Both the position numbers and the translations under genes were made by a program. 32,000 nucleotides of DNA, taken from contig NC_013966.1 of the NCBI RefSeq assembly GCF_000025685.1, forward strand, positions 210,001 to 242,000, written 5' to 3'. Origin of the DNA: Haloferax volcanii DS2 (GTDB lineage Archaea > Halobacteriota > Halobacteria > Halobacteriales > Haloferacaceae). The notes beneath the pieces are model-generated. The model had not been told where the DNA came from, made no database searches, and saw nothing but the letters and a program-made list of their open reading frames with translations. This document shows positions 10,944 through 31,630 of the stretch, one piece after another (positions within the stretch are counted from its first letter, which is position 1; each line of letters begins with the position of its first letter).

Positions 10944-10957
10944 GCGCCCCGCGGGAG

Positions 10958-12621: not shown

Positions 12622-13721
12622 GTGCAGACCACATCTCAATCGCCGCGCCCCAGCTCGGCGCGGCGGAACGGGACCGAATCGCGGCCGTCCTCGAAAGCGG
12701 CATGATAGCCGACGGCCCCGAGGTCAGGGGCTTCGAACGGGAGTTCGCCGACTACTGCGAAGCCGACCACGGCGTCGCCACCTCCAACGGGACGACGGCG
12801 CTCCACGCCGCGCTCCACGCGCTCGGCGTCGGCCCCGGCGACCGCGTCCTGACGACGCCCTTCACGTTCATCGCCACGGCCAACGCCGTCGCCTTCGCGG
12901 GCGCTGAAGTGGGTTTCGTCGACATCGACCCGCGAACGTACAACATCGACCCCGACGCGCTCGAAGCGCGGCTCCGGGCCGGCGAGCGGGTGGACGCAGT
13001 CATCGCAGTCCACCTCTACGGCCTCCCGGCGGACATGACGCGGCTCGCGGAGCTCGCAGCGGAGTACGACTTCCTGCTCGTCGAGGACGCCGCGCAGGCT
13101 CACGGCGCGGCAGTCGAGGGACGACGCGTCGGCTCCTTCGGCGACGCCGCGTGCTTCTCGTTCTACCCGACGAAGAACATGACCACGAGCGAGGGCGGCA
13201 TGATTACGACAAACCGCGCCGACGTCGCCGAGCGCGCCGCCCGGTTCGTGGACCACGGCCGCGTCTCCGGCTACGAACACGCCGAGGTCGGCCACAACTT
13301 CCGCATGACGAGCATCGCCGCGGCCATCGGCCGGGTCCAACTCGAACGTCTCCCCGAGTTCACTCGCGCGAGACAGGCCAACGCCGCCGCGCTCACGGAG
13401 TACCTCGAAGACTCGCCGGTCACGACGCCTCACACGCCGCCGGGCCGGACTCACGTCTTCCACCAGTACACCGTCGCCTGCGACGGTATCGAGCGCGACG
13501 CCCTCAAGTCGTACCTCGACGCGAAGGGCATCGCCACGGGCGTCTACTACCCGAAGCCCGTCCACAAGCAGCCCGCCTACGAACACCTCGCGGTGTCGGC
13601 TCCGGTCGCGGAAGAAGCCGCGACACGGGTTCTCTCGTTGCCGGTCCACCCCGGACTCAGCGAGGCCGACGTGGAGCGCGTCGGGACTGCGGTCGCCAAC
13701 TACGCGGAGGTGGCGAGGTGA
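12618..13721 (+). CDS. DegT/DnrJ/EryC1-family PLP-dependent sugar aminotransferase, WbpE-like
   Basis: 367 aa. Contains SNGTTALHAAL, DAAQAHGA and FSFYPTKNMTTSEGG (the PLP-lysine region), typical of this family. Confidence 0.9.
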   Translation: MSADHISIAAPQLGAAERDRIAAVLESGMIADGPEVRGFEREFADYCEADHGVATSNGTTALHAALHALGVGPGDRVLTTPFTFIATANAVAFAGAEVGFVDIDPRTYNIDPDALEARLRAGERVDAVIAVHLYGLPADMTRLAELAAEYDFLLVEDAAQAHGAAVEGRRVGSFGDAACFSFYPTKNMTTSEGGMITTNRADVAERAARFVDHGRVSGYEHAEVGHNFRMTSIAAAIGRVQLERLPEFTRARQANAAALTEYLEDSPVTTPHTPPGRTHVFHQYTVACDGIERDALKSYLDAKGIATGVYYPKPVHKQPAYEHLAVSAPVAEEAATRVLSLPVHPGLSEADVERVGTAVANYAEVAR

Positions 13722-14803
13722 GCCGAGACCCCGCCGGACTCCGCGCCGACGGCGGCCGAGAGCGCCCGGTCCGCGCGGGCGTCGTCGGCGTCGGGTCGAT
13801 GGGAACCAACCACGCGCGGGTCTACGCGGAGCTTCGCGGCGTCGAACTGGTCGGCGTCGCCGACGCGGACGCGGACCGCGCCGCCGAGGTCGCCGCCGAC
13901 TTCGGCACCGACGCGTACGGCATCGAGGAGTTGCTCGACCGCGTGGACGTGGTAACGGTCGCAGTGCCGACGCCCTATCACGCGTCGGTCGCCCGGCAGT
14001 GCATCGACGCCGGCGTCCACGCGCTCGTCGAGAAACCCTTCGTCGACGACCTCGGCGTCGGCGCGGAGTTGGCCGCGCTCGCGGAGGACCGCGGCGTCGT
14101 GCTCCAGGTCGGCCACATCGAGCGGTTCAATCCGGTCGTCCGCGCCCTCCCCGACCTCCTCGACGGCGTCGAACCCATCGCCATCACCGCGAACCGGCTC
14201 GGCCCGCCGCTGAACCGCGAGATGGGCGACGGCGTCGTCATGGACCTCATGATTCACGACATCGACGTGGTGCTCTCGCTGGTCGATGCCGAGGTCGACC
14301 GCGTCGCCGCGACCGCCACGCCCGACGAGCAGTACGCGACGGCGCAGGTGACGTTCGACAACGGCGTCATCGCCTCGCTCACGGCGAGTCGGCTCACCCA
14401 GCAGAAGACGCGGACCCTCGACATCACCGCGCGCGACCGGCTCATCCGGGTGGACTACCTGAACCAGTCGGTCCAGATTTTCCGCCAGTCGCGCCCGGAT
14501 TACCTCCGGGACAACGGGGGCGTCCGCTACCGCCACGAAGTGGTGATGGAACAGCCGATGATTTCCACCGGCGAGCCGCTGAAACGCGAGTTACAGGCGT
14601 TCGTCGACGCCGCGACCGACGGCGGCCCCGTCCTCGTCTCGCCGGCCGACGGCCTGCGCGCTATCGACCTCGCCCGGCGAATCGAGGCCGACGCCGAATC
14701 GACGGTTCGGAGCGTCGAGACCGCGGAGACTGCGGAAAATGCAGAGACCGCGGAAGCCACGGAAAACGCTGAGACTACGGAACCCTCGGAGGGTCGACGA
14801 TGA
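13718..14803 (+). CDS. Gfo/Idh/MocA-family NAD-dependent oxidoreductase, WbpB-like, with an acidic repeat tail
   Basis: Rossmann motif VGVVGVGSMGTNHA near the N-terminus, and a later EKP motif (LVEKPF). I place the start at GTG 13718, overlapping the upstream stop (GTGA). The track ORF start at 13151 is an Arg-rich overlap with the aminotransferase and is not credible. Confidence 0.82.
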   Translation: MSRDPAGLRADGGRERPVRAGVVGVGSMGTNHARVYAELRGVELVGVADADADRAAEVAADFGTDAYGIEELLDRVDVVTVAVPTPYHASVARQCIDAGVHALVEKPFVDDLGVGAELAALAEDRGVVLQVGHIERFNPVVRALPDLLDGVEPIAITANRLGPPLNREMGDGVVMDLMIHDIDVVLSLVDAEVDRVAATATPDEQYATAQVTFDNGVIASLTASRLTQQKTRTLDITARDRLIRVDYLNQSVQIFRQSRPDYLRDNGGVRYRHEVVMEQPMISTGEPLKRELQAFVDAATDGGPVLVSPADGLRAIDLARRIEADAESTVRSVETAETAENAETAEATENAETTEPSEGRR

Positions 14804-16227
14804 GCCGCGAGCACCCCGGACTGTACGGCTCCGACCGCTCGCCCGACGAACAGACGCGGGCCCTGCGCGCCGGCGAGGTCCCCGTCGCGGTGTACGGCCT
14901 GGGGAAGATGGGCCTCCCGCTGGCGGCCGTCTACGCCCGCGCGACGGGCAACGTCACCGGCGTCGACATCAGCGAGGACGTGGTTGGCGGCGTCAACGAC
15001 GGCGAGTGCCACGTGGCGAAGGAGCCGGGACTGCCCGAGTTAGTCGCCGAGCAGGCCGAACGCGGCGCGCTCCGGGCGACCACCGACGGCGTCGCCGCGG
15101 CCGAGGGAGCCGCGGTGCACGTCATCATCGTCCCGACGCCGCTGACCGACGACCGCGAACCCGACCTCGCGGCGTTCGAAGCCGTCCTCGACAGCATCGC
15201 GCGGGGGCTCGCGCCCGGCGACCTCGTCGTCGTCGAGTGTACCGTCCCGCCGGGGACGAGCAAAGACCTCGTAATTCCGCACCTCGCGGACCGAAGCGGC
15301 CTCTCGGCCGGCGAGTTCGGCGTGGCGTTCTGCCCCGAGCGGACCTCGTCTGGCCGGGCGCTCCGCGACATCACCGAGTCGCACCCGAAAATCGTCGGCG
15401 GGGTCGACGCCGAGAGCACCCGCGTGGCGGCGCTCGTCTACGGCGAGATAACCGCGAACGAGGTGATTCCCGTGCGCGACGCGACGACCGCGGAGGCCGT
15501 GAAGCTGTTCGAGGGCGTCTACCGCGACGTGAACATCGCGCTCGCGAACGAACTCGCGCGGCTCCGCGACGACCTCGGCATCGACGTGACCGAGGCCATC
15601 GACGCGGCCAATACCCAGCCGTACTGCGACATCCACGCGCCCGGCCCGGGCGTCGGCGGCCACTGCATCCCGTGGTACCCGTACTTCATCACGAGCCGAG
15701 TGGCGGCCGAGACGCCGCTGCTCCTGACCGCCCGCGAGGTCAACGACAGCATGCCGGCGTTCACCGCCGACAAGCTCCGCGACGAACTGGCCGCGGCGGG
15801 CCGAGAGATACGGGGCGCGACCGTCGCCATCCTCGGCGTCACCTACCGCCCGGGCGTCGCCGAGACCCGCGCGACCCCCGCCGCGGGCGTCATCGACCGA
15901 CTGAACGACCTCGGCGCGACCGTCCTCGCGGTCGACCCGATGCTCTCGGACGAAGTCGTCGCGTCCTTCGGCGCGACCCCCGTCTCGCTCTCCGACCTCC
16001 CGAACCGCGCCATCGACGCGGCCGTGGTCGTCACGCCGCACGAGGAGTTCGACGGCATCGACTGGGCCGCCTTCGACGACCTCGTCGTCGTCGACGGCCG
16101 CGGCACCCTCGGTGACATCGGCCACCGCGTGTACGAAATCGGCGGCGGACCGCGGGGCGAGTCGTCCGAGACCGAGGCCGGCCCCGAGATTGCGGCCGAC
16201 TCGTCGCACGGAGGGCCGGGCCGATGA
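14800..16227 (+). CDS. UDP-sugar 6-dehydrogenase (UDP-glucose/GDP-mannose dehydrogenase family), WbpA/WecC-like
   Basis: N-terminal VAVYGLGKMGLPLA Rossmann motif. A catalytic-Cys region GPGVGGHCIPWYPYF. 475 aa. ATGA overlaps at both ends. Confidence 0.9.
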   Translation: MSREHPGLYGSDRSPDEQTRALRAGEVPVAVYGLGKMGLPLAAVYARATGNVTGVDISEDVVGGVNDGECHVAKEPGLPELVAEQAERGALRATTDGVAAAEGAAVHVIIVPTPLTDDREPDLAAFEAVLDSIARGLAPGDLVVVECTVPPGTSKDLVIPHLADRSGLSAGEFGVAFCPERTSSGRALRDITESHPKIVGGVDAESTRVAALVYGEITANEVIPVRDATTAEAVKLFEGVYRDVNIALANELARLRDDLGIDVTEAIDAANTQPYCDIHAPGPGVGGHCIPWYPYFITSRVAAETPLLLTAREVNDSMPAFTADKLRDELAAAGREIRGATVAILGVTYRPGVAETRATPAAGVIDRLNDLGATVLAVDPMLSDEVVASFGATPVSLSDLPNRAIDAAVVVTPHEEFDGIDWAAFDDLVVVDGRGTLGDIGHRVYEIGGGPRGESSETEAGPEIAADSSHGGPGR

Positions 16228-17309
16228 GCCGTCTCAAGGTGCTCTCGGTCGTCGGCGCGCGCCCGCAGTTCATCAAGGCGTTCCCCGTCTCCGACGCGCT
16301 CAGACGCGACCACGACGAGGTGCTCGTCCACACCGGCCAGCACTACGACGAGTCGATGTCGGGCGTGTTCTTCGACGAACTCGCCATCCCCGAGCCGGAC
16401 TACAACCTCGGGGTCGGCTCGGGCGGCCACGCCGCCCAGACCGCCGAGATGATGACCCGGCTGGACGGCGTCGTCGCCGACGAAGCCCCCGACGTGGTGC
16501 TCGTCTACGGCGACACCAACTCGACGCTCGCGGCGGCGCTCGTGGCCGCGAAGCGCGACCCCGCTCTGGCGCACGTCGAGGCCGGCCTGCGGAGCCACAA
16601 CTGGGCGATGCCCGAGGAGGTCAACCGCGTGCTCACCGACCACTGCTCGGACCTGCTGTTCGCGCCCTCCGAGTCGGCCGCCGAGACGCTGGCGGCCGAG
16701 GGCATCCGAAACGGCGTCTCCGTGACCGGCGACGTGCAGTACGACGCCGTCCTCCGGGTCCGCGAGGCCGCCCGCGAGCGGTCGTCGATACTCGACGACC
16801 TCGACCTCCGAGACGGCGAGTACGTCCTCGCGACGGTCCACCGCGCCGCCAACACCGACGACCGCGACCGCCTCGGAGGCATCGTGGAGGGGCTGGCGTC
16901 GTCGGAACTCCCGGTCGTCTTCCCGGTCCACCCGCGGACCGAAGGGGCGCTCGAAGCCAGCGGCCTCTGGTCGCGGCTCGCAGACGCCGAGAACGTCGTC
17001 CTCGTGGAGCCGGTCGGCTACCTCGATTTCGTCCGCCTGCTCGACGGCGCGGAGCGCGTCGCCACCGACTCCGGCGGCGTCCAGAAGGAGGCGTTCTACC
17101 TCGACACCCGGTGTCTCACGCTCCGCGACGAGACCGAGTGGACAGAGACCGTCGACGCCGGCTGGAACGTCCTCGTCGGCGCGGACGCGGCCGCGATTCG
17201 GGCGGCGCTGGCCGACGACGACCCACTTCCCGAAAAGCCCTCGCTGTACGGCGACGGGAGCGCCGCCGAGCGAATCGTCGCCGCGCTCTCGGAGTACGGG
17301 GATGCGTGA
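16224..17309 (+). CDS. wecB: Non-hydrolysing UDP-N-acetylglucosamine(uronate) 2-epimerase, WecB/WbpI-like
   Basis: VVGARPQFIKAFPV, HTGQHYD and VLVYGDTNSTLAAAL are classic epimerase_2 motifs. 361 aa. Confidence 0.92.
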   Translation: MSRLKVLSVVGARPQFIKAFPVSDALRRDHDEVLVHTGQHYDESMSGVFFDELAIPEPDYNLGVGSGGHAAQTAEMMTRLDGVVADEAPDVVLVYGDTNSTLAAALVAAKRDPALAHVEAGLRSHNWAMPEEVNRVLTDHCSDLLFAPSESAAETLAAEGIRNGVSVTGDVQYDAVLRVREAARERSSILDDLDLRDGEYVLATVHRAANTDDRDRLGGIVEGLASSELPVVFPVHPRTEGALEASGLWSRLADAENVVLVEPVGYLDFVRLLDGAERVATDSGGVQKEAFYLDTRCLTLRDETEWTETVDAGWNVLVGADAAAIRAALADDDPLPEKPSLYGDGSAAERIVAALSEYGDA

Positions 17310-18387
17310 GAAGACGGGAGATGCGGACGCGCGAGATGGCCCCGGCTACACCGCCTCGGAACCGAGCGGGCCCGGCGAACCCGGCTCCGGTCCCGGCTTC
17401 GCGGTCTGTCTGACTCACGACGTGGACCGCCCGTACAAGACGTATCAGGGGCTGTACTACGCGGCGAAGTCGAACCCCGGCTACCACCTCCGGACGCTCC
17501 TCCGGCGGGAGAACCCCTACTGGCAGTTCGAGGATATCATGGCGCTCGAACGCGACCTCGGCGTCCGCTCGTCGTTCTACTTCCTCAATGAGCCGAGCCT
17601 CCTCGAAACGGGGTCGCTGTCGGACTGGCTCGAACCGAAAAACTGGGTCGAACACCTCGGCCGGTACGACCTCGATTCGGCGTCGATAGCCGACGCCGTC
17701 CGCGACCTCGACGGGGGGGGCTGGGAGGTCGGCATCCACGGCTCGTTCCGGTCGTGCGACGACTTCGACCGCCTCCGAACCGAAACGCGCGAACTCGAAG
17801 CGATACTCGGCCACGAACTCGTCGGCGGCCGCCAGCACCACCTCAAACTCGGGCCGAACACGTGGCGCTACCACCGCGAACTCGGCCTGAAGTACGACGC
17901 CAGCCCCGGGTCGAGTTCGGAACACGGCTTCCAACACGGTTACCGGCCGTTCAGACCCTTCGACGACGACTTCGTCGTCTTCCCGCTGACGCTGATGGAG
18001 GTGTCGCTTCCCGACCCCGGGTCGGCGTTCGACGAGGCGTGGGCCGAATGCGAGCGCCTGTTGGACGAAGCCGAGGCGAACGACGCCGTGATGACGGTGC
18101 TGTGGCACCCGCGGTACTTCAACGAGGACGAGTTCCCCGGCTACCGCCGGCTCTACCGCCGCATCGTCGAACGGGCGCTCGACCGCGGCGCGTGGGTCGG
18201 CCCCGTCGCGGACTACTACCGCGAGTTCCTCGCCGAGCGCGATTCCAGCGACTCCGACGATGCCGGCGACGATTCGGACGGGAGGGCGACCGACAACGCG
18301 ACCACCGACAACGCGACCGCCGGCGGTTCGAACTACTCTCTCTCTCCCGGTAGAATCCGGCATCGTCGGTCGGTATCGGCCCCATAA
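17302..18387 (+). CDS. Polysaccharide deacetylase (CE4)-like protein, divergent
   Basis: CLTHDVDRPY and WEVGIHGS resemble the Asp-Asp and His motifs of the deacetylase fold. It overlaps the epimerase gene by 8 nt. It has a low-complexity N-terminus and an acidic C-terminal tail. Confidence 0.55.
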   Translation: MREKTGDADARDGPGYTASEPSGPGEPGSGPGFAVCLTHDVDRPYKTYQGLYYAAKSNPGYHLRTLLRRENPYWQFEDIMALERDLGVRSSFYFLNEPSLLETGSLSDWLEPKNWVEHLGRYDLDSASIADAVRDLDGGGWEVGIHGSFRSCDDFDRLRTETRELEAILGHELVGGRQHHLKLGPNTWRYHRELGLKYDASPGSSSEHGFQHGYRPFRPFDDDFVVFPLTLMEVSLPDPGSAFDEAWAECERLLDEAEANDAVMTVLWHPRYFNEDEFPGYRRLYRRIVERALDRGAWVGPVADYYREFLAERDSSDSDDAGDDSDGRATDNATTDNATAGGSNYSLSPGRIRHRRSVSAP

Positions 18388-18449: not shown

Positions 18450-19766
18450 ATGAAACAACCAACGCAGTATCACCGCGACGGCGACGACGCGGCCGACACG
18501 GAGCGACTCCAGCGGTACGTCGAGGTGCTCGACGACGTGCTCGACTACGCCCGCGACCGCGACTACAAGGGCTGGGACTACGGCGACGGCATGAGCAGCA
18601 GGCTCCTGCTTTCGGTCCCCATCGACAACCGCTGGTTCAACCTCGCGGTCCAGGAGTTCATCAAGCGCTCGCCCGTCAACGTCCGCCCGCTGTTTCTCGT
18701 GGAGCAACGCCGGAACTTCAAAGGCATCACGCTGTTCGCCATGGCGAACCGGACCCGCGCCCAGTTGGCCGAGCGGTTCGACGGCGACCGCCCGGCGGAG
18801 ACGTACCGCGACGACGCGGCATCGCTGACGGAGTGGCTCGTCGAGAACCAGGCCAGGGGGTACAGCGGCTTCGCCGGCAGTCACCGCCACGTCATCCAGC
18901 ACATCTCCGGTCGCAACGGCCCGCGGTCGGGGATTCCGCACTCACCGAACATCGTCTCGACGGCCTACGGCGTCAAGGCGCTCCTCGCGGGCCGGGAGTT
19001 CGACCCCGACTACCCGGACATCGCCAAAACCGCCGTGGACGTGCTGCTCGACGACCTCAACTACCGGCCGAAAGACGACGGCGCGGTCATGGACTACTAC
19101 CTCTCGCACCCGAAGGACAGCTACACGCTCAACGCGCTGGCCATCGGGGCGCGGTTGTTCGTCGAGCTGTACGACCACTTCGGCGACGAGGAACTGCTCG
19201 AACGCGCCGAGAAGGTGTACGACTTCGTCGCGTCGAAGCAGACCGACCGCGGCGGGTGGTACTACCGCGAGCCCGCGAGCGCCTCGCACCTCTCGATGGA
19301 TAACCACCACAACGGCTTCATTGTCGAGTGCTTCCAGCGCTACGAACAGGTCGTCGGCAGCGGACGGTACGACGAGACGCTCGCTCGCGGCCTCGACTTC
19401 TACGCCCGCGAACTGTTCGACGAGGACGGCGCGCCCAACTTCGACGAGGAGCATCCCTACCCGCGGGACATTCACGCGACGGCGCAGGGCATCCTCGTGT
19501 TCGCCTACGCCGGCCAGTACGACCGCGCCGAGCGCGCCATCGACTGGGCGCTCGCGAACATGTACGTCCCGTCCGAGGGCCGGTTCTACTTCCGCAAACA
19601 CCGCTTTTACACCAAGCGCATGACGCTCATGCGGTGGTGTCAGGCGTGGATGGCCTACGCCATCGCCGAGTACGTCGCCACCAGAATCTCCGGGGAACCG
19701 ACGCACGGCTACGGCATCGACGCCGACGGTATCGAGCGCCTACGGGCGGCGGCAGAGACCCCCTGA
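18450..19766 (+). CDS. Conserved hypothetical protein, aromatic-rich and probably all-helical; function unknown
   Basis: 438-aa ORF with haloarchaeal acidic composition and no competing credible frame. Motifs such as GGWYYRE, DNHHNGF and RWCQAW suggest a carbohydrate-active toroid-like fold, but I could not place it in a family. Confidence 0.7.
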   Translation: MKQPTQYHRDGDDAADTERLQRYVEVLDDVLDYARDRDYKGWDYGDGMSSRLLLSVPIDNRWFNLAVQEFIKRSPVNVRPLFLVEQRRNFKGITLFAMANRTRAQLAERFDGDRPAETYRDDAASLTEWLVENQARGYSGFAGSHRHVIQHISGRNGPRSGIPHSPNIVSTAYGVKALLAGREFDPDYPDIAKTAVDVLLDDLNYRPKDDGAVMDYYLSHPKDSYTLNALAIGARLFVELYDHFGDEELLERAEKVYDFVASKQTDRGGWYYREPASASHLSMDNHHNGFIVECFQRYEQVVGSGRYDETLARGLDFYARELFDEDGAPNFDEEHPYPRDIHATAQGILVFAYAGQYDRAERAIDWALANMYVPSEGRFYFRKHRFYTKRMTLMRWCQAWMAYAIAEYVATRISGEPTHGYGIDADGIERLRAAAETP

Positions 19767-20036: not shown

Positions 20037-21125
20037 ATGACCATCGAAATCGTCGAGTTCGACGAGCGCGACCGCGACGAGTGGGACACGTACGTCAGTC
20101 GGTCGAGTCAGGCGAGCCTCTTTCACCAGTACGAGGCGCTTCGGCTCCAAGCGAACTACTCGAACTCGAAGCTCCACCTGCTCGTCGGCTACAAGACCGA
20201 GGAGCCGGTCGGCCTGTTCCCCGTCTTCGAGATTCGAAAGGGGCTGGTCAAGACGGCGTTCTCGCCGCCGCCGCACATCGGCGTCCCCTACCTCGGGCCC
20301 GTGATGCTCGACGCCGGCAACATCAAGAGCCGGAAGTTCGAGCGCCGCCGCAACCAGTTCATCGACGGCTGTACCGAGTGGCTGGGCGAACACATCGGCC
20401 CGAGCTACACGCACGTCCGCGTCGGTGACTACTACACCGACATGCGGACGTTCCTGTGGGGCGGCTGCGACGTGTCGCCGAAGTACACCTACAACGTCGA
20501 CCTGACCCGCGGCGAAGAGGACCTCCTCATGTCGTTCAGCCGGAGCGCCCGCCGGAACATCCGCGACGGTCGAAAGCTCGTCTCGGGTATCGAGGAGGGC
20601 GACCGCGACGACATCTGTTCGATTCTCACGCTGGTCAAGAACCGCTACGAGGAACAGGATTTGTCGTTCGACGTGCCGCCGCAGTTCGTCATGGACCTGT
20701 ACGACTCGCTCCCGAAAGGCCAAGTTCGGCCCTACGTCTTCCGGTACGACGGGGCGTTCGTGAGCGGAATCGTCGTCCTCCAGAACGGGGACACGCTCTA
20801 CCGCTGGCTCGGCGGCGTCCGCCCCCAGTTCGATTTCGGCATCGACGTCAACGACCTGCTGGACTGGCGCATCATGCGCGACGGCATGGACGACGGGATG
20901 CGCCGCTACGACCTCGTCGGCGCGAACAACCGCCGACTCAACCGCTACAAGAGCAAGTACAACCCCGAACTCGTCACGTTCTACCAGATAGAACACGGCG
21001 CGCTCCCGGTCAGAACCATCGCGCACCTGTACAAGAGCCGCCTCGGCCCCGGCATCGAGATGCTGTCCCGGGGAAACGGGACGAGCCTCCCGTCGCGGCT
21101 CGTCTCGGGGTTCCTCCACCGATGA
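20037..21125 (+). CDS. FemAB/CelD-like GNAT-fold transferase (paralog 1)
   Basis: The C-terminal YDLVGANNRRLNRYKSKYNPELV matches the YDxGG...FKxxFGG signature of FemAB/Acetyltransf_6 proteins. ATG 20037 (MTIEIVEF) is preferred over the track start at 20007. Confidence 0.7.
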   Translation: MTIEIVEFDERDRDEWDTYVSRSSQASLFHQYEALRLQANYSNSKLHLLVGYKTEEPVGLFPVFEIRKGLVKTAFSPPPHIGVPYLGPVMLDAGNIKSRKFERRRNQFIDGCTEWLGEHIGPSYTHVRVGDYYTDMRTFLWGGCDVSPKYTYNVDLTRGEEDLLMSFSRSARRNIRDGRKLVSGIEEGDRDDICSILTLVKNRYEEQDLSFDVPPQFVMDLYDSLPKGQVRPYVFRYDGAFVSGIVVLQNGDTLYRWLGGVRPQFDFGIDVNDLLDWRIMRDGMDDGMRRYDLVGANNRRLNRYKSKYNPELVTFYQIEHGALPVRTIAHLYKSRLGPGIEMLSRGNGTSLPSRLVSGFLHR

Positions 21126-21213
21126 CGACCCGCTCGACGAGCCGACCGACGCACCGACCGACGCGTCAACCCACGCACCGACCGACGACCACCCACCCAC
21201 ACGACCACGACCT

Positions 21214-22251
21214 ATGTCACAACTCCGTATCGAACCCCTGAGCCTCGACGAGTGGGGAGCCGCGCTCCCCGCGTCGGGCACCGAAGTCTTCCACACCCCC
21301 GCGGTGCTCGCCGCCATCGACGAGCACTTCGACGGCGAAATGCACCTGTTCGGCGTCTTCAAGGGCCAAGAGCCGGTCGCGCTGTTCCCGACGTTCGTCC
21401 GCCGAAACCCCCTCGGACGGGTCGTCGTCTCGCCGCCGCCGTCGATGGCGATTCCGTACATCGGCCCGGTGATGATGCCGAACAGCCCGAAACAGAGCGC
21501 CTACGAGTCGGTGAACCGCGAGTTCGCCGACCTCGTGGTCGAGGAGCTCGGCATCCGCTCGAACCGGACGTTCGTCCGCCTGCTCTGTTCGCCGGCGTAC
21601 CTCGACCCCCGCCCGTTCGAGTGGACCGGCTTCGCGGTCAAACCCTCGTTTACCTACCGGCTCGACCTCGGCGGGCGCTCGCTCGACGAGATACAGGCCC
21701 AGTTCAGCAGCAGCCTCCGCCGCGAGATTCGGCAGGCGCGCGAACTCGACATCACCATCGCGGACGAGGGACTCGACGGCGCTCGCGTCGTCTACGACGA
21801 CGTGGTCTCGCGGTACGACGAGCAGGACGAACCGTTCGGGATGCCGTGGGAGTTCGTCGAGTCGCTAGTCGAGAACCTCGGCGACCGGTGTCGGGTGTAC
21901 GTCGCCCGCGACCCAGGCGGCGAGTATCTCAGCGGGATGATTGTCACCTTCTCCGACGAGGTGGGCTACTTCTGGCTCGGCGGTGCGCGGGGAGAGTACG
22001 ACGGCGTCAGCATCAACAGCCTGCTGCACTGGACCATCATCGAGGACATCGTCGAAGACGAGGCGCTCGCGTCGGTCACGAAGTACGACCTCGTCGGCGC
22101 GAACACGGAGCGGCTCTGCAACTACAAATCCAAGTTCGGCGGCGAACTCGTCCCGTACTACGTCGTCGAGTCGACCGGCGTCGGGATGAACCTCGCAAAG
22201 CGGACCTACCAGCTCCTGTACAAGGGGTCGGAGCGAATCGCCACGAAGTGA
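21214..22251 (+). CDS. FemAB/CelD-like GNAT-fold transferase (paralog 2)
   Basis: A clear paralog of 20037..21125 (EPVALFPTF vs EPVGLFPVF; SPPPSMAIPYIGPVM vs SPPPHIGVPYLGPVM; YDLVGANTERLCNYKSKFGGELV). Confidence 0.7.
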   Translation: MSQLRIEPLSLDEWGAALPASGTEVFHTPAVLAAIDEHFDGEMHLFGVFKGQEPVALFPTFVRRNPLGRVVVSPPPSMAIPYIGPVMMPNSPKQSAYESVNREFADLVVEELGIRSNRTFVRLLCSPAYLDPRPFEWTGFAVKPSFTYRLDLGGRSLDEIQAQFSSSLRREIRQARELDITIADEGLDGARVVYDDVVSRYDEQDEPFGMPWEFVESLVENLGDRCRVYVARDPGGEYLSGMIVTFSDEVGYFWLGGARGEYDGVSINSLLHWTIIEDIVEDEALASVTKYDLVGANTERLCNYKSKFGGELVPYYVVESTGVGMNLAKRTYQLLYKGSERIATK

Positions 22252-22305: not shown

Positions 22306-22602
22306 TCACGCCATCTGCTGTGTTTGGATGACGTGCCAGATGTTCTCGGCGTCGTCGGTGATGCCGTACACCCGCCCTTTTCGGCGCTGTTCCGGGACGA
22401 GCAGTTCCACGAGCGAGCGGTCTCTGAGTTCCTGTAACGCCCGCGAGACGTGGGCGACCGCGCTCTCGGAGTCGGTGGCGATTTGCGTCGGCGTCGCCGG
22501 CCCCTCCGAGAGTCTATCGAGAACGGAGACGCGGTAGCGAGAGCTGATGACGAAGCCCACGTCGTCCCACGGCACGTCGTCGGTTCCACCGACGGAGCTC
22601 AC
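22306..22602 (-). CDS. Small winged-helix-turn-helix transcriptional regulator
   Basis: 98 aa. RYRVSVLDRLSEGPATPTQIATDSESAVAHVSRALQELRDRSLVE is an ArsR/MarR-like wHTH pattern. The start is a GTG with a GAGGTG SD upstream (22611..22616 on the + strand). Confidence 0.8.
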   Translation of the reverse strand: MSSVGGTDDVPWDDVGFVISSRYRVSVLDRLSEGPATPTQIATDSESAVAHVSRALQELRDRSLVELLVPEQRRKGRVYGITDDAENIWHVIQTQQMA

Positions 22603-25085: not shown

Positions 25086-26375
25086 TTAGGTGGTCGGGAG
25101 CGCCCGGGCAGTCGTAGTGAGCCGCGCCTCCGTAGCGAACGGGAGCGCCAGCCCCGCGAGAGGCCGGCCCTCATCCTGCCGGAAGCCGTTGGCGAGGTCA
25201 TCCGCCAGCCCACGGAGCGCGTCCGGCTCCATCTCTGCCAGCCGGGCAAGAGCGCGGAAGCCCTCCCGGTGGTACTCCCGGACGCCAGGGTAGGCGTCCA
25301 CGTCCTCCCCGTCTACCGCCGCCACGGACCACTCCGTCGGGGAGAGCGAGAGCGTCCGCACGTCTACCTGCGGCGGCTTCCCCGGCGGCGCGTCCAGGAG
25401 GTCCGCCCAGTCTGCCCGGAGGTCCTCCCGGGCCATCACCCGCTCCTCGCCGCCGTAGACGACGTGGAGGTGGGCCACGAGGTCCCTCTGTGGTTCGAGG
25501 ACCGCCAGGTAGTCCGGGACGTGCCCGGGTCGTGGCCGGTCCGCCCGGGAGTACCGGAAGCGGGAGTGGAGGTCGTCCAGCGCCTCCCGTAGCGTCTCCA
25601 CGGAGCCGTAGACGGACGGGACGCACTCCCGCGGGAGTGTGAGCGTCACCCACGAGGCCACGTCGTACCGAGTTGTGAGCGCGTCCGCCGCCGTCTCGAA
25701 CCGCTCCCGCGTTCCCGCCGCCTTCTCTGGAGCCGTGAAGCGGTCCCCCGCCGGGAGGCCGTCCCGGTCCGGGAGGTGAAGCGTCTTCGCCTCCCCCTCC
25801 GCCGTGAGCATCGTCTCCGCGTGGTCCGCCAGGAGGTGAAGCAGGAGGGACCGCTGGCCGTCCGTCTCCACCCTCCGGACCGACCGGAGAACCGACGCGG
25901 CCCGGTCCCGCGGGAGCCGGTCCCAGCGGTCCGTCGCGTCAGGGGCGCTCCCGGGCGTTCCGGAATTACGAATGCTACGTATCAAGGCGACGGCTTTCCC
26001 GGTGGGGCGTACCCACAGCAAATCGCCGGACGGCTTCCGGGTGTCGAAGAAATCGCCGTACCGCTGGATGAAGCGGTACGCCCGTCCGTACTCGGGGCCG
26101 CCGGAGGCCCATCCGTCCCCGTAGACTTCGGTCAGGAGGGCGTGGAACGGGATGCCCTCCGGCGTCACGTCCGGGTGTAGTACGGCGGTTTTCAGGAGAA
26201 GCGACTTCTCCATCGCGTTCGGTTCGTCCGCCCACGGGACCGGCGCGTCCCGGAGCGGGACGAAGGGAGCGGCCCCCTTCTCCCCGGGACTTTTTGGCGA
26301 CCCCTCCGGAGCGGCGTAGCCCCCGCGGTCCGAACCTTCATTTCCGAGCGTCCCGTCACCCGACACGACGACCAC
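25086..26375 (-). CDS. Rolling-circle replication initiator-like protein (HUH endonuclease superfamily)
   Basis: WVTLTLP resembles RCR motif I, and VAHLHVVY resembles the HUH motif II. A candidate Tyr motif (GVREYHREG) lies downstream. The track start is GTG 26375. GTG 26366 sits 6 nt after a GGAGGTG SD and may be the true start. ATG 26213 is another option. Confidence 0.55.
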   Translation of the reverse strand: MVVVSGDGTLGNEGSDRGGYAAPEGSPKSPGEKGAAPFVPLRDAPVPWADEPNAMEKSLLLKTAVLHPDVTPEGIPFHALLTEVYGDGWASGGPEYGRAYRFIQRYGDFFDTRKPSGDLLWVRPTGKAVALIRSIRNSGTPGSAPDATDRWDRLPRDRAASVLRSVRRVETDGQRSLLLHLLADHAETMLTAEGEAKTLHLPDRDGLPAGDRFTAPEKAAGTRERFETAADALTTRYDVASWVTLTLPRECVPSVYGSVETLREALDDLHSRFRYSRADRPRPGHVPDYLAVLEPQRDLVAHLHVVYGGEERVMAREDLRADWADLLDAPPGKPPQVDVRTLSLSPTEWSVAAVDGEDVDAYPGVREYHREGFRALARLAEMEPDALRGLADDLANGFRQDEGRPLAGLALPFATEARLTTTARALPTT

Positions 26376-26462
26376 CTCCCGCCCGGAGCGTGCCGTCGTC
26401 CTCTACCTCAGCGGTGATGGCGGGCGCTGGGACCCCCGTCGTCCTCGGTTTCACCGGCACCG

Positions 26463-26645
26463 TCACTCTCCACGAGCGGCGGCTTCGGCGTCGAGGAGCG
26501 CCCGTGCCACCCAGGAGACGGGGAGGTCACTGCGCGCCAGGTCCTCCAGGTCGTCCCGGTGGTCCCGGACCGCGGAGAGGTCCCGCCCGGAGATGGGTCT
26601 GTTCGTACGTCCGTTGCGGTCGTTGGAGTCCGTGTTCTGGCTCAT
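26463..26645 (-). CDS. Small hypothetical protein (60 aa) upstream of rep
   Basis: ATG-initiated ORF with acidic/charged composition, in the position where RCR plasmids often carry a small copy-control gene. No motif recognised. Confidence 0.4.
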   Translation of the reverse strand: MSQNTDSNDRNGRTNRPISGRDLSAVRDHRDDLEDLARSDLPVSWVARALLDAEAAARGE

Positions 26646-26704
26646 GGCTCATGGTCCCAGCATGGTCGATGCCATTGGCCCTCGGACTCTGGTGTCGTCT
26701 GTCT

Positions 26705-26740
26705 CTTACGGGCGCTCTGGTCCGTAGAGCGTCCCGTAAG
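26705..26740. repeat. Imperfect inverted repeat / hairpin (14-bp stem with one bulge, 7-nt loop)
   Basis: cttacgggcgctct (26705..26718) pairs with agagcgtcccgtaag (26726..26740). Confidence 0.8.
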
Positions 26741-26893
26741 CGATTAGGTCCCGGCGGGAGAAGGATGGAGTGTCGAGGTCCGGGTCCTTCTCCGGTCCCG
26801 CCTTTCGCTAATCACAGAGTAGTTACTACGCTAATCCCTTAAATCTGCGGAGTACGGGGCTTCTACCTCCTGAATAGGGCTAACTCAGACTAA

Positions 26894-27010
26894 TTAGCGG
26901 AACGTGTCCGGCGAGCAGGCGGGACAGTCGCGTTCTCCCTTCAGCACAGGGGCGAGGTTCTTCGGCCACGTCTCCCCGCAGGAGCCACACCGGACGGGGC
27001 CGTTGTCCAT
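26894..27010 (-). CDS. 38-aa zinc-ribbon protein (CxxC-x17-CxxC), not in the ORF track
   Basis: My own translation is MDNGPVRCGSCGETWPKNLAPVLKGERDCPACSPDTFR*. Its ATG (27010..27008) overlaps the TGA of the upstream ORF by 1 nt (TGATG), which suggests translational coupling. Confidence 0.5.
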   Translation of the reverse strand: MDNGPVRCGSCGETWPKNLAPVLKGERDCPACSPDTFR

Positions 27011-27345
27011 CAGTCCCCCTCCGCCGAGTCGTCGTCTCCGTCCTGTGCGTCGGCCAGGAACGCCTCCGCCTCGAAGCCGGCCTCTCTCCCGGCGTCGGGG
27101 AGGCCGAGCGTGTGAGCGGCGTCCTCGGCGCTCTCGTCGTCCGCTACCACGACCGGAGCCGAGTGGTCCAGCGCGGCGGCCTCCTCGACGTACTCCCGGG
27201 CCTCCGCGGGGAGGTCGAAGGCGTCCAGAGAGACGCCCACGAGGAGTTTCGCGTCTCCCGGCGGCCCGTCCGCGTCCCCCGGACGGTCCTGCTCCCGGTA
27301 CTGCCGGATGGCCCGCTCCACGTCTCTACGAGTCGGTCCGGCCAT
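27010..27345 (-). CDS. Hypothetical acidic protein (111 aa)
   Basis: The ATG directly abuts the upstream stop (TAGATG). Haloarchaeal acidic composition. No recognisable domain. Confidence 0.55.
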   Translation of the reverse strand: MAGPTRRDVERAIRQYREQDRPGDADGPPGDAKLLVGVSLDAFDLPAEAREYVEEAAALDHSAPVVVADDESAEDAAHTLGLPDAGREAGFEAEAFLADAQDGDDDSAEGD

Positions 27346-27786
27346 CTACTTCACCCGAAACGGGCTTTCGCTCTCCCGTTCTTCCTGTTCTAAGGCTTCG
27401 ATACGCTCCAAGAGGTCCTCTAAGTCGCTCTGCCGACGCCACTCTTCGAGGTCGAGGAAGGTCTGCGCCGCCTTCCGGTACTCCTCGTCCTCCAGCAGTT
27501 CCCGGGCGCACCGCCACAGGAACGCCTCTCCCTCCAGCGTGGCCGCGTCATCGTCCGCGGCCTCGTTGAGGTATGACCCGAGACGCTGTACGTCTTTCCG
27601 GACCTGTTCGCGGCTCACGTCGTAGCGTCGTCCGTAGGCGGCGTAGTTCAGGAGCCGAGGGCTTCCCGCCTCCTCGATGAGGGAGAGCAACTCGGCGCGT
27701 CTCTCCCGGTACGAGTATTCCGCCGGGTCCTTAGCGTCCGGGACCTCGACAGCGCGGTAGTCTTCCGTCATGTCAAGCGTAGTCAA
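27346..27786 (-). CDS. Hypothetical protein with a possible HTH segment and a coiled-coil C-terminus (146 aa)
   Basis: YGRRYDVSREQVRKDVQRLGSYL resembles a helix-turn-helix recognition region. The track start is TTG 27786; ATG 27771 is an alternative. Confidence 0.55.
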   Translation of the reverse strand: MTTLDMTEDYRAVEVPDAKDPAEYSYRERRAELLSLIEEAGSPRLLNYAAYGRRYDVSREQVRKDVQRLGSYLNEAADDDAATLEGEAFLWRCARELLEDEEYRKAAQTFLDLEEWRRQSDLEDLLERIEALEQEERESESPFRVK

Positions 27787-28007
27787 CCCTCCGCGGACGG
27801 ACCAGCGCCGCTCTCGTCGGCGCTACGACTGTCTCCGTCCGTCTCTGTTGCTGTTGACAGGCGTAGGTCCCCGGGGCCGTACCGCTCCGGGAGCGAGAGG
27901 TCCGCGGGACCGACCGGCTCCCGGACCAGCTCCCCGCCGAGCGTCGGCTCTGCGTCGGCCTCGTGGTCGCCGGCTCCGTCCTCCGGGGGAAGCGTCTCGT
28001 CGGTCAC
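27783..28007 (-). CDS. Hypothetical low-complexity acidic protein (74 aa), doubtful
   Basis: GTG start 10 nt after the upstream stop. Only its position in the compact operon supports it. Confidence 0.3.
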   Translation of the reverse strand: MTDETLPPEDGAGDHEADAEPTLGGELVREPVGPADLSLPERYGPGDLRLSTATETDGDSRSADESGAGPSAEG

Positions 28008-28017
28008 GGGACGGCCC

Positions 28018-28752
28018 TCAGGCAGGCGTGCCGTCCTCTCCGGCGTCCTCGTTCTCCAGCGCGGCGAGGGACGCGAGCGCCCGGCGGCGGGCCTGGTTCC
28101 CGTCGTCGTCCAGGTCCCGGCTGTCCGGCATGGCTCCCCGGAGGAACGTGGCGAACTCCGAGAGCGGGTCCGAGAGGTCCCCGCCGTCCTCGACGTACTG
28201 CTCTACGGCGTCCTTGGCCGCCTCCGCGACGGCCTCCTGCCGCTCCAGTTCGTCCTCGATGGACTCCAGGAGGTCCACGGCGTTCGCGCTCTTGCTCAGG
28301 TCCGCGTCCGCCGCGGCCTCCCGGAGGACCTGCTTCGCGCTCGGCGTCGGGCCGTCGATGGCCGCCAGCCGGTCCCGGATGTCCTCCAGGAGCCGGAGGC
28401 GCTTCTCCTCGGTCGTGAGGGACGCCTCCTCGATGTCCGCCCGGGAGAGCGAGAGGCTGACCCGCTCCTCGTCTCCCTTCGCTACGTCCGTCCCGGTCGG
28501 GTCCCAGTCGTCCAGGGCGTCCTCCAGCGTCTCCTGGGCCGACTTCTCCACGTCCTCTCCCGCTCCGAGGATGCCGTCGAAGCCGGAGCCGGGGCCGTCG
28601 GCGTCCCGGTCCTCCGCCGGGGAGCGTGGCGCGTCGTGGTCGTCGTGGACCTTCCCGGATGTCCGGCCCTTCGCTCGGCGGTATTCTCTGTACGTCCGCG
28701 GGGAGTCGTCCGCGTCCTCCCCGTTCGTGCCGTCGTCGGAGTCGTGCGGCAT
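28018..28752 (-). CDS. Hypothetical highly acidic protein with a predicted coiled-coil region (244 aa)
   Basis: First gene of the compact minus-strand operon, with an ATG start. Heptad-like helical stretches (EEKRLRLLEDIRDRLAAI, LLESIEDELERQEAVAEAAKDAVEQY). No recognisable domain. Confidence 0.6.
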   Translation of the reverse strand: MPHDSDDGTNGEDADDSPRTYREYRRAKGRTSGKVHDDHDAPRSPAEDRDADGPGSGFDGILGAGEDVEKSAQETLEDALDDWDPTGTDVAKGDEERVSLSLSRADIEEASLTTEEKRLRLLEDIRDRLAAIDGPTPSAKQVLREAAADADLSKSANAVDLLESIEDELERQEAVAEAAKDAVEQYVEDGGDLSDPLSEFATFLRGAMPDSRDLDDDGNQARRRALASLAALENEDAGEDGTPA

Positions 28753-28987
28753 GGACGGTCGTAGGTGAGCCAGCGGCTTAGTTTCCTATGTAAGCATACT
28801 GAGTTTGTTTGGCGCAAATACCCTACGTAGTCGGGTGATTCAGTATCAGAAGTCGGGTAGGTCCCGGTAAACTGAAGCCGCTCCGGACGGTACGACGAGA
28901 CGGGCCGGTCCTCTCGCTCGGAGCGGCCTGAAGACGGACACGCGCCTCTCGTAGGCTCATGTGTTACACCGTCGTCGGTGTTCTCCA

Positions 28988-29033
28988 CCCGGGTCGGCGG
29001 CTTCCCGCCGGCCCGGGCGTACTCAGGAGTACG
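28988..29033. repeat. Two adjacent GC-rich hairpins/palindromes
   Basis: cccgggtcggcgg (28988..29000) pairs with ccgccggcccggg (29005..29017), 13 bp with one T-G pair and loop cttc. It is followed at once by the palindrome cgtactcaggagtacg (29018..29033). Confidence 0.8.
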
Positions 29034-29081
29034 ATACAATATCCGAACTCTTCGATATAATGTCAGCAACGCCTAACGACA

Positions 29082-31625
29082 CTATACGTCGAGCGTCTGC
29101 TGGCCTTCCAACTCGAACGTCAGATAGTCCGATTCGACCCCTTCCCAGGACATATCTAAGGTATCCTGAATATCGACGGTCTCCATCACCGCTCGAACAA
29201 TACGACAGAACTTCCGAATATCACTACTCGAAAGAGTCTCACCGATACGGTTCTGAATCCACTTCTTCACGACTGGCCTATCACCAATCTCGTACTCCCA
29301 CACATCCGCCGGAACTGGGGCGAAGTACTGGTCAGAATTGATATACAGCCGCTCTTCTTCCTCATCGTAGTGCCGGTAGTACTCGCCAGTATTCTCCGAA
29401 ACCTCATTCTCACCATCACCATCTTCCTCAGTGTGAAGCTGCACGCCCGGCGACTCCAAATCAGGGTGGTCGAGTAAGTGTAACTGCACCAAATTCGCGC
29501 CCAGGGACTCGTACTTCCGGAAGAGTGCTTCGTCCTCAGGGAACGGAATTTTCGGGAAGTCCGTCTCCATGAACTCCGAGTACTTCAGACGGTACGTCCG
29601 CGTGTACAACACAGCATACGTGTAGTTGAACACTTCCTCAGGCGTTACCTCGTCGCTGTAGACCTCAGAAAGCTGGGAGACGATACGCGGATTCACGTTC
29701 GTCTGTCGAGATGTGTTTTGGAGTTTTGAGGACGTTTCATCCGGCGCGTTCGGGTACAGATACAGCGGGAACTGGTAATTCACCTCCTTCGTAGACATCC
29801 CATGGTGCGTCATCAGTCCATCCGTCACGAACGCGTGGTCGAACGGCGTTCGTTCCGTTCGCCGCGGCACTGAGAGGCTGATGTTGTCGCTCGCTAGCAT
29901 ATGTTTCGACAATCGCCCAGCACGGCGATGTACTGCGACGTGTTCGTCGTAGACGGTGTATTCCTTGTCGAACGGAGACGTCTGGATTTGAACGATTTTA
30001 TCCTCCCAGTTTGTGGTTTCCAGATGTTCTTTCGCGTCGCTGTAGAGCCACTGGTCTTGGCTACACAGATTGAAGTACTCGCGCGCTTCGCTTTCTGTGT
30101 CTGTAGCAAGTAGCTGTCTGACTTTCTGTTTCTGGCGTTCCGGGGTGAGTGAGATAGCGAATTCGTTGTGCGTGGTTACGATACCGGGTGCGGGGTCGCC
30201 GTATTCTGAGAAAATTTGTGGCACTTTCACCCAGTCGTGATAGGAACTTGCGAGTTCCTCGTCCCGAGGTACGAAGAGGTAGTGCGGCTCACGCGGAGTC
30301 ACCTCTTCCCACTCGATATCGTTCATGTCGTTGCCGCTCAGTGCTTCGTACTTCTCCTCTCTCGTTCCCCACAGGTCGCTGTGGTAGATATCAGCGTATT
30401 CGCCGTCATCCACGTTGTCGGTTTTTACAAAGATACTGATGGCGACACCCTGTTGGATGTCGAACACGTTCTCGTCAGTACCGCCTTCCGGGGGTTCCTC
30501 CAGCCTGTTCGAGTTCCCGTGTAGGTCAAGCACGTAAATTTCGTCGAACTCCAACAGCAACTGCTCACGCATCCCCATGAACGTCGGATTGTCGATGTAC
30601 GCATGATTCGTGATGTACCCCAGCGTACCTTCAGCGGCGTCAGCGAGTTTCCACTGTGCCCAGCGGATGAACTTCACATAGTCGTCGTGCAGCCACTTCG
30701 CCTGCCCACGCTTCTGTAACTCCGGATATCCCTCTTTGTAGTCCTCGACGAGGGATTCAATCCACTCCCCCTGATTTTCTGAGTGCCCTGAGTATGGCGG
30801 ATTCCCTAAAATAGCCAAAATTGGGGTGTCCTCCTTCACTTCGTGGGCCATCTCCGCTTCCTCGGCGAGCGACGCCGCGAACGGCAGGTGCGTCTGTTCC
30901 GCTTCCTCTGGCTCTAACGTATTAGTCAGGAATAACTTCACGCGGTCATCGTCGTCGAGTTCATAGCCCTGTTCTTCGAACAGAATCGCCATTTTCAGAT
31001 GGCCGATAGTGTACGCCGCGACGAGTAGCTCGAACGAATAGAAGTCCTTCAAGACGTGGTCGGACAGCAGTGCTGACACCCCACCACGACCGTATTTCTC
31101 CGCGTACTCCTCGACCGCCAGTCGCGTCGCCGCAGCTGTGAACGTCATCGTACCTGCGGCAGGGTCAAGAATAGTAACATCTTCGTCCGCAAGACCGTCT
31201 CCGCGCCCAAGGTCGGTTTTCAGCACAGAGTTCACTGACTTCGTAATCCACTCTACCACCGGCTCTGGCGTGTAGTACACGCCTTTCTGCTGGCGAGTTT
31301 CCGGGTCGTACTCTTCGAGGAACGTCTCGTAGAAGTGAACAAGCGGTGTGGATTCGGCTCTATCCGCGTAGAACTCGCTCAGAATATCGTCTACGTTCGT
31401 ACCGGAGAGTACGTCTGCGACGTCATCAACAATCCATTCGATTTCTGTTGGCGGGTCGGACGTGGAGATGAAGTCAAAGATATCTTTCAGAATACCGATA
31501 GTGGACGGGATAGCGTCGGCAGCATCAGTGCGGCTGAACTCGCCTGATACCCGCGTTCGAGCGGTGAGTAAACCGTACGTGATGGTTTGGCTGTAGATAT
31601 CAGCGAACTCTCGCCGGCATGCGTT
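29082..31625 (-). pseudogene. Type IIG / type ISP-like N6-adenine DNA methyltransferase with C-terminal specificity region; N-terminus truncated
   Basis: Motif I LDPAAGTMTF and motif IV GNPPYSG. The frame stays open upstream of the track start (GTG 31280) to 31625 and encodes conserved-looking FADIYSQTITYGLLTAR and LVHFYETFLEEYDPETRQQKGVYYTPEPVV. That 345-nt stretch has no ATG/GTG/TTG and ends at an in-frame TAG (31626..31628) beside a transposase-like ORF end. Confidence 0.7.
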
Positions 31626-31630
31626 CTAGT

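Follow-up and report, generated by a model that had tools for sequence, protein, structure and literature searches.

Why does an archaeon without peptidoglycan carry two tandem genes for FemAB-like transferases beside an operon for a di-N-acetylated uronic acid? The question is raised by a stretch of high-GC haloarchaeal DNA, 32,000 nt long, from Haloferax volcanii DS2 (contig NC_013966.1, positions 210,001 to 242,000); we call this whole stretch the window and count positions from its first letter. Haloferax has a surface layer (S-layer), no peptidoglycan and no murein. An earlier note on the window had correctly assumed a host without peptidoglycan, and had proposed that the two proteins, here paralogs A and B (Table 1), decorate the sugar with amino-acid or acyl substituents, one or two in number. 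This still appears to be the best reading, and with moderate confidence we give it a narrower form: the paralogs would carry out sequential N-aminoacylation of a deacetylated diamino-uronic acid, in what would be an archaeal equivalent of the Wbp/Vim pathway known from bacteria.

Predicted fold and likely donor of the paralogs

Both open reading frames (ORFs) lie where the earlier note had placed them; its length for paralog B (345 amino acids) was right, that for paralog A (363) has to be corrected to 362. The two genes, both on the plus strand, are separated by 88 bp. Their products are 36% identical over 330 residues (E-value 2e-59), and the signature YDLVGAN...YKSK(Y/F)..ELV described in that note is indeed present in both (YDLVGANNRRLNRYKSKYNPELV in paralog A, YDLVGANTERLCNYKSKFGGELV in paralog B). 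Both proteins score well above the gathering cut-off (22 bits) of the Pfam family Acetyltransf_6 (PF13480), with 86.7 bits (E-value 2.2e-24) for paralog A and 71.1 bits (E-value 1.4e-19) for paralog B. For the FemAB family (PF02388, gathering cut-off 24 bits), paralog A gives a marginal 26.3 bits on a 57-residue stretch alone and paralog B stays under the cut-off with 14 bits. The family placement made earlier stands. The sole NCBIfam family matched by the two paralogs is TIGR03019 (PEP-CTERM-associated FemAB).

An exhaustive search returned 1768 clusters of relatives at E-value ≤ 0.001, and a 71-sequence alignment was used as input for AlphaFold. The resulting model of paralog A (predicted local distance difference test, pLDDT, 92.5; predicted template modelling score, pTM, 0.88) has two GNAT-like lobes in tandem. 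When this model was compared with the PDB by Foldseek, the 23 best matches were all aminoacyl-tRNA-dependent transferases: Sbb17/Sba18 (E-value 1e-15, template modelling (TM) score 0.77 on the target), followed by FemX, FemA and the aminoacyl-phosphatidylglycerol synthase domains of MprF. TM scores to FemX of Staphylococcus aureus and Weissella viridescens were 0.66–0.69, those to FemX and FemA overall 0.65–0.69 with probability 1.00; tandem GNATs using acetyl-CoA ranked lower in the list, with TM < 0.5. The family profile matched FemX chains at E-value 6.5e-11 and Sbb17 at 1e-7. The paralogs have no coiled-coil insert and are similar in size to FemX of W. viridescens. By this model they have the FemX-like tandem-GNAT fold, in agreement with the FemAB/Acetyltransf_6 fold originally named for them.

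Lysine 305 of paralog A (in YKSKF) is conserved in at least 90% of the 71 relatives, and the lysine matching it in alignment A3 (K78) is invariant in 15 sequences. In a C-terminal sub-profile, K305 aligns with the lysine of the FK pair in Sba18 (nrFKlgF) and in S. aureus FemA (vkFKkgY); we take its counterpart in the aromatic-Lys motif of W. viridescens FemX to be Lys305. The motif Q/RxxGxG/A, which binds the acyl-CoA pyrophosphate after strand β4 of canonical GNATs, has no match anywhere in either paralog, and at the equivalent loops it was seen in just 1–2 of the 71 relatives. The most likely donor would be aminoacyl-tRNA.

The paralogs could also be acyl-CoA-dependent N-acyltransferases, which re-acylate the deacetylated amine with something other than an amino acid, such as glyceroyl, hydroxyacyl or another short acyl. 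Such a role would agree with the Pfam family title, 'acetyltransferase (GNAT)', with the RefSeq name GNAT N-acetyltransferase, with an archaeal N-glycan in which glyceric acid is N-linked to 2,3-diamino-glucuronic acid (PMC11407970), and with the fact that the donor of the related HfsK is likewise not known (PMC5362036). We consider it unlikely, yet the most serious competitor to aminoacylation: the closest structures all belong to users of aminoacyl-tRNA, the Fem-type lysine is kept and the pyrophosphate-binding motif is absent, and sets of up to five paralogs with an ATP-grasp ligase, described below, suit the stepwise building of a peptide better than a single acylation.

Inspection of the two sequences revealed no signal peptide or membrane segment in either paralog, which fits action on cytoplasmic precursors. 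Paralog A has an isoelectric point (pI) of 6.7 and a net charge of −1; for paralog B and the neighbouring enzymes the pI is 4.4–5.4. A near-neutral pI, unusual for a cytoplasmic protein of haloarchaea, is a weak hint of polyanion binding. Paralog B has its own orthologs in other haloarchaeal genera (47–52% identity). We considered and rejected a recent tandem duplication: orthologs of ~50% identity exist separately for type A and for type B in several genera, so the duplication is old.

Public records name the Fem-like proteins 'GNAT family N-acetyltransferase' (RefSeq) or, in other records, 'lipid II:glycine glycyltransferase FemX'. The second name has to be rejected for Haloferax, a host without murein, lipid II or UDP-MurNAc-pentapeptide. 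With no peptidoglycan precursor there to serve as acceptor, the paralogs are not FemX in the functional sense.

A putative VimE-like deacetylase and its linkage to Fem genes

At the level of domains, the genes upstream of the paralogs correspond to the five-enzyme set WbpD/E/B/A/I of the 2,3-diacetamido-uronic-acid pathway. The description of the locus as a glycan island beside an operon for a di-N-acetyl uronic acid is borne out. The gene directly following this set had been overlooked (VimE-like deacetylase in Table 1). The single NCBIfam match of its product is NF053580 (UDP-2,3-diacetamido-2,3-dideoxy-glucuronate deacetylase VimE; E-value 4.4e-10, residues 35–290, 256 residues). We found 1126 homologs, with the source name 'polysaccharide deacetylase family protein', among which the motifs THDVD, HGS and LWHP are invariant; we take these motifs to resemble those of carbohydrate esterase 4 (CE4). 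The 361-residue sequence contains no signal peptide or membrane segment. A deacetylase in the cluster would give the sugar a free amine to act as acceptor.

The linkage of the deacetylase to Fem genes is conserved in distant metagenomic relatives. We collected metagenomic proteins 26–34% identical to paralog A, encoded in contigs with GC of 26–49%. In all four informative loci a VimE-like gene lies directly upstream of the Fem genes, which number one in L087, one in L088, five in L091 and three in L093 (Table 1), and this adjacency holds down to 32–41% identity. In L091 (5586–13411) and L092, a VimE-like deacetylase gene is followed by five Fem-like genes split by a gene for an ATP-grasp ligase; the array in L093 occupies 3054–7731. 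The arrays of L091, L092 and L093, which lie within polysaccharide loci, may be assembly lines for glycan-bound peptides. A series of paralogs with a carboxylate-activating ligase fits stepwise peptide assembly on a sugar amine.

Conservation of the cluster in haloarchaea

We scanned a single genome for each species, with 14 haloarchaeal sequences as the query; the 80 loci obtained were then searched with the proteins of the window. Close relatives of the locus have 95–99% identity, and the nearest annotated records are plasmids of H. lucentense and H. alexandrinus at 99%. The full cluster is present in all 13 Haloferax species loci (identity of paralog A, 57–95%), and the Wbp genes are retained in each of the 13. 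The Haloferax gene order is DUF354, YdjM-WbpD-E-B-A-epimerase-deacetylase-(438-aa)-FemA-FemB, HTH, where HTH is a helix-turn-helix gene. In Halocatena, Actinarchaeum, Halosimplex, Halapricum and Halorarius we saw versions in which genes of both Fem types are accompanied by those for the deacetylase, the epimerase and DUF354. On plasmid pHM500 of H. mediterranei (NC_017944.1:259649-264489; 82.6% DNA identity) there are genes for a deacetylase, a hypothetical protein and two GNAT proteins; the exopolysaccharide of this species contains N-acetyl-glucosaminuronic acid (GlcNAcA), not a diamino sugar.

The remaining 69 loci have an A-type Fem gene of ~336 aa, whose usual neighbours are a Phosphodiest-family enzyme (in 55 loci), DUF1616 (in 45) and a Wzx-like flippase (in 23). 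The Phosphodiest gene (PF01663; ~540 aa, alkaline-phosphatase superfamily) adjoins the Fem gene directly in those 55 loci (e.g. L034:11235-12857); in the distant locus L087, a sulfatase-family gene is at the position that it holds elsewhere. Wbp or deacetylase genes are present within 10 kb in 17 of the 69 loci, including that of Halococcus salifodinae DSM 8989 (L080), where the A-type Fem gene and its Phosphodiest partner adjoin a WbpD/E/B/A-epimerase operon. No Wbp or VimE-like gene was found within 10 kb in the other 52; thus, the acceptor of a Fem protein is not always a Wbp product.

These loci lend some weight to the idea that the Fem acceptor is unrelated to the Wbp product (glucosamine of a polymer, a lipid head group as for MprF, or a protein) and that the genes are co-located because they share a surface island. 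Most A-type orthologs lack Wbp genes nearby and have the other neighbours listed above, and the lipid-aminoacylating domains of MprF are among the structural neighbours of paralog A. Still, the pairing of deacetylase and Fem genes, often together with a 2-epimerase and a 6-dehydrogenase, persists in very distant loci, neither protein has a signal peptide or a membrane segment, and the Wbp genes have been kept in all 13 Haloferax species. We therefore regard an unrelated acceptor as distinctly improbable.

Proposed pathway

The pathway of N-aminoacylation that we infer, with its donor, acceptor position, amino acids and final polymer, would begin, judging from gene content, with Wbp-type enzymes (12046–17309) making UDP-2,3-diacetamido-2,3-dideoxy-hexuronic acid in its gluco or manno form. 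The VimE-like deacetylase would next strip one N-acetyl group; C-2 is its probable site, given that C-3 has only just been acetylated by the WbpD-like enzyme (the logic of PMC7468200). Paralog A would then move an aminoacyl group, most likely from aminoacyl-tRNA, to the freed sugar amine, and paralog B would add a second residue, either on the α-amine of the first, in a FemX-FemA-FemB-like manner, or on another amine. Finally, the divergent DUF354 and GT4 glycosyltransferases would put the modified sugar into a surface glycan or exopolysaccharide. The analysis itself establishes the fold, the conserved lysine of catalytic type, the missing acyl-CoA motif and the conserved deacetylase–Fem gene linkage.

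The closest parallel comes from Porphyromonas gingivalis and Tannerella forsythia. In these bacteria Wbp enzymes lead to di-N-acetyl-glucuronic acid, from which VimE, by the published proposal, takes off the 2-N-acetyl group, and Ser or Gly is put on by VimA; when the T. forsythia vimA was swapped in, Ser on the sugar was replaced by Gly (PMC7468200). TIGR03019 is a family that VimA matches, and further bacteria also have vimA-vimE-wbp clusters (PMC7468200). The earlier statement that no enzyme family had been assigned is, for N-aminoacylation, out of date, given that FemAB-like VimA performs it in Porphyromonas and Tannerella (PMC7468200). The gene logic of the two systems is the same, with a Wbp operon, a deacetylase (a putative one in Haloferax) and a tandem GNAT of the FemAB-like kind, the bacterial product being 2-N-seryl- or 2-N-glycyl-3-N-acetyl-glucuronic acid or the glucuronamide. 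All four Wbp types (6-dehydrogenase, 3-dehydrogenase, aminotransferase and N-acetyltransferase) are recognizable at domain level in the Haloferax cluster; VimE is the sole curated match of its deacetylase, and the sole NCBIfam match of its paralogs is the family of VimA. An asparagine-synthase-like gene, located upstream of GT4 and DUF354 in H. lucentense (L094) and Haloferax sp. DFSO60 (L006), has a position corresponding to that of WbpS and may encode a counterpart of this uronamide-forming enzyme; in the window, this position is taken by a cas locus. The differences are the archaeal host, two conserved Fem paralogs instead of one, VimE and TIGR03019 scores far under the cut-offs, and the addition of a 2-epimerase, a DUF354 protein and an (α/α)6-barrel protein. 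Haloferax also lacks a type IX secretion system (T9SS) and anionic lipopolysaccharide (A-LPS), so its use of the sugar must differ from that in Porphyromonas.

Other characterised systems share parts of the arrangement. FemX, FemA and FemB resemble the paralogs in tandem-GNAT fold (TM 0.65–0.69) and aromatic-Lys motif, and the W. viridescens FemX also in size and in the absence of a coiled-coil insert; tandem paralogs suggest sequential additions, as in the Fem series. Identity is low (10–14%), however, and the bacterial acceptors, lipid II and UDP-MurNAc-pentapeptide, are absent from Haloferax. Sbb17/Sba18, the best structural matches, show that the fold can aminoacylate a sugar amine (that of streptothrisamine) from aminoacyl-tRNA, whereas they belong to actinomycete secondary metabolism, use a free small molecule as acceptor, lack both a partner deacetylase and a polysaccharide setting, and are ~13–14% identical to the paralogs. 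Orf11 likewise uses Gly-tRNA to glycylate an amino sugar (PMC12945691). In the holdfast system of Caulobacter crescentus, the deacetylase HfsH is paired with FemX-like HfsK (PMC5362036): here too a polysaccharide deacetylase accompanies a FemX-like tandem GNAT proposed to acylate the exposed amines, but HfsK is under cyclic di-GMP control via its C-terminal tail, and the acceptor is a GlcNAc polymer rather than a diamino-uronic acid.

The amino acids had at first been placed in amide linkage on the C-6 carboxylate of the uronic acid, like threonine in Methanococcus. We know of no characterised enzyme of the FemABX/MprF fold that joins the amine of an amino acid to a carboxylate. Although the operon product has a free carboxylate and threonine amides of ManNAc-type uronic acids are found in Methanococcus glycans (PMC11407970), this linkage is very improbable here, since characterised enzymes of the fold acylate an amine or a hydroxyl and none activates a carboxylate (the joining of an amine to a carboxylate needs ATP-dependent activation), the deacetylase of the cluster creates an amine acceptor, and related loci have separate carboxylate-activating genes, for an ATP-grasp ligase (L091) or an asparagine-synthase-like protein (L006, L094). 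The threonine amide of Methanococcus is a different linkage from N-aminoacylation. It has reportedly been assigned by genetics to AglU.

Several observations weigh against sequential N-aminoacylation. The curated matches are far below the equivalog cut-offs: the deacetylase scores 38.7 bits with NF053580, against a cut-off of 440, and the paralogs score 25.9 and 16.3 bits with TIGR03019, against 260 bits. A profile of the deacetylase had no meaningful match among PDB sequences. A gap of 270 bp lies ahead of paralog A, and separate transcription from the sugar operon is therefore possible. The 52 loci with no Wbp or VimE-like gene nearby belong here as well. We know of no Fem-type enzyme from an archaeon that has been characterised by biochemistry or by genetics; a literature search on Haloferax and FemAB found no paper. 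The glyceric acid of the methanogen N-glycan mentioned above is an N-acyl group that is not an amino acid (PMC11407970). Lastly, H. denitrificans ATCC 35960 (L008) carries the same cluster with ~95% identity, and its exopolysaccharide is composed of three fully N-acetylated residues of GlcNAc3NAcA (the 2,3-diacetamido-2,3-dideoxy form of glucuronic acid) plus galactose, with no amino acid (PMC3191746). That polymer supports the operon making GlcNAc3NAcA. The lack of an amino acid in it would mean that the aminoacylated form is a minor component or linker (as in Porphyromonas), is part of another glycan or is condition-dependent.

Most likely, the cluster is a two-paralog archaeal variant of the known Wbp/Vim kind of pathway, partly misnamed in public records.

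Gene neighbourhood

Table 1. Genes of the glycan island in the window, and gene content of the four informative distant loci
Feature	Position	Strand	Details
GT4 family glycosyltransferase, divergent from sugar operon	8613–9671	−	Pfam Glyco_trans_1_4 E 3.5e-30, Glycos_transf_1 4.4e-28; weakly EpsE-like (NCBIfam)
DUF354 protein (GT-B-like), recurrent module partner	9846–10943	−	Pfam PF04007 E 4e-7
YdjM-family membrane hydrolase, operon head	11276–11863	+	Pfam PF04307 E 1e-12
WbpD-like hexapeptide-repeat N-acetyltransferase	12046–12621	+	Pfam Hexapep E 2e-26; NCBIfam NeuD/PglB/VioB-like
WbpE-like DegT/DnrJ sugar aminotransferase	12618–13721	+	Pfam PF01041 E 2.6e-120; NCBIfam sugar transaminase matches all under cut-offs
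WbpB-like GFO/IDH/MocA oxidoreductase	13718–14803	+	Pfam PF01408 E 5e-25; NCBIfam archaeal UDP-GlcNAc 3-dehydrogenase 196.8 bits, under cut-off
WbpA/WecC-like UDP-N-acetyl-hexosamine 6-dehydrogenase	14800–16227	+	All three Pfam UDPG_MGDP_dh domains; TIGR03026 364 bits, above cut-off
Non-hydrolysing UDP-GlcNAc 2-epimerase (WecB/WbpI type)	16224–17309	+	Pfam PF02350 E 4e-101; TIGR00236 313.7 bits, cut-off 210
VimE-like cytoplasmic sugar deacetylase (putative)	17302–18387	+	361 aa; NF053580 match, invariant motifs; start uncertain, homologs 291–349 aa
(α/α)6-barrel protein (predicted), optional module member	18450–19766	+	438 aa; AlphaFold pLDDT 86.7
Fem-type tandem-GNAT transferase (predicted), paralog A	20037–21125	+	ATG start, 362 aa; PF13480, AlphaFold model, Foldseek
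Fem-type tandem-GNAT transferase (predicted), paralog B	21214–22251	+	345 aa; PF13480, identity to paralog A
Small winged-helix protein	22306–22602	−	Pfam HVO_A0261_N E 3e-9; beside cluster in 13/13 Haloferax loci
Distant locus L087			GC 26%; deacetylase, Fem, sulfatase, 438-aa homolog
Distant locus L088			GC 49%; deacetylase, Fem, GT4 ... CE4 deacetylase, epimerase, 6-dehydrogenase
Distant locus L091			GC 35%; DUF354 ... deacetylase, Fem x2, ATP-grasp ligase, Fem x3, flippase, GT4, PIG-L
Distant locus L093			GC 36%; CE4 deacetylase, formyltransferase, DUF354, deacetylase, Fem x3, hexapeptide acetyltransferase

The DUF354 gene was found in 12 of the 13 Haloferax loci, and homologs with 31–35% identity are present in the distant loci L091 and L093. 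The YdjM gene occurs in 12 of the 13 Haloferax loci as well, and in 13 of the 69 others. An 852-aa ORF on the plus strand (8490–11048) was rejected as spurious; the two minus-strand glycosyltransferase genes occupy this stretch. Within the operon, the GTG start of the WbpB-like gene overlaps the preceding stop codon, as read from the sequence. Scans for tRNA genes and for promoters and terminators of bacterial type gave nothing useful in the window.

The 438-aa protein encoded between the deacetylase and paralog A has, in Foldseek comparison, TM scores of 0.5–0.65 to AGE-type 2-epimerases and GH76 mannanases. Its gene is missing from two of the 13 Haloferax loci; a homolog lies near the Fem gene of the low-GC contig L087. 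We rejected its public labels, 'antibiotic ABC transporter permease' and 'prenyltransferase/squalene oxidase repeat', since the protein models as a soluble (α/α)6 barrel. The first of these labels is also present on the 99%-identical H. lucentense plasmid, where RefSeq calls the deacetylase a 'polysaccharide deacetylase family protein' and gives each of the two Fem-like products the name 'GNAT family N-acetyltransferase'. The winged-helix protein encoded past paralog B is possibly a local regulator.

The glycan island is abutted by a type I-B cas operon (74–7354: cas8b fragment, cas7, cas5, cas3, cas4, cas1), beside which there is a short CRISPR array with a 66-bp period (7879–8177). On the other side, GC falls to 0.53–0.56 at 29–32 kb of the window. 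Within 25086–32000, the minus strand encodes a 732-aa type ISP restriction-modification enzyme (29082–31280), a 429-aa protein with faint Rep-like matches (25086–26375) and several small ORFs; this region has the look of a provirus remnant or an integrated mobile element. A link of the cluster to archaeosortase would be speculative, and neither the window nor the related loci offer anything bearing on it.

Significance

If the paralogs do deacetylated-sugar aminoacylation as proposed, amino-acid-size mass shifts on a diamino-uronic acid are predicted, and in an archaeon that is genetically tractable.

One could speculate further that the deacetylase and Fem module is a general archaeal device, which attaches peptides of one to five residues to amino sugars of envelope polymers, with one Fem paralog per residue and sometimes an ATP-grasp ligase. 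We think this generalization rather unlikely. If true, it would give archaea a module functionally like the stems and cross-bridges of peptidoglycan: glycan strands would be cross-linked through the amine left free on the attached amino acid, in the way that has been proposed for the bridges of N-glycyl-glucosamine in Halococcus walls, or this amine would alternatively receive the C-termini of proteins, as does the Vim sugar in Bacteroidota. On this view, the two Haloferax paralogs would be the first envelope transferases of archaea to depend on aminoacyl-tRNA.

We know of no enzyme that has, since 1979, been assigned to the formation of the N-glycyl-glucosamine bridges of Halococcus. As such bridges are reported in Halococcus walls (PMC4187196), and as a Fem gene adjoins the Wbp operon of H. 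salifodinae, the Fem-type family is a candidate maker of the N-glycyl amino sugars of these walls. Uncultured lineages, with up to five paralogs, may build glycan-bound peptides.

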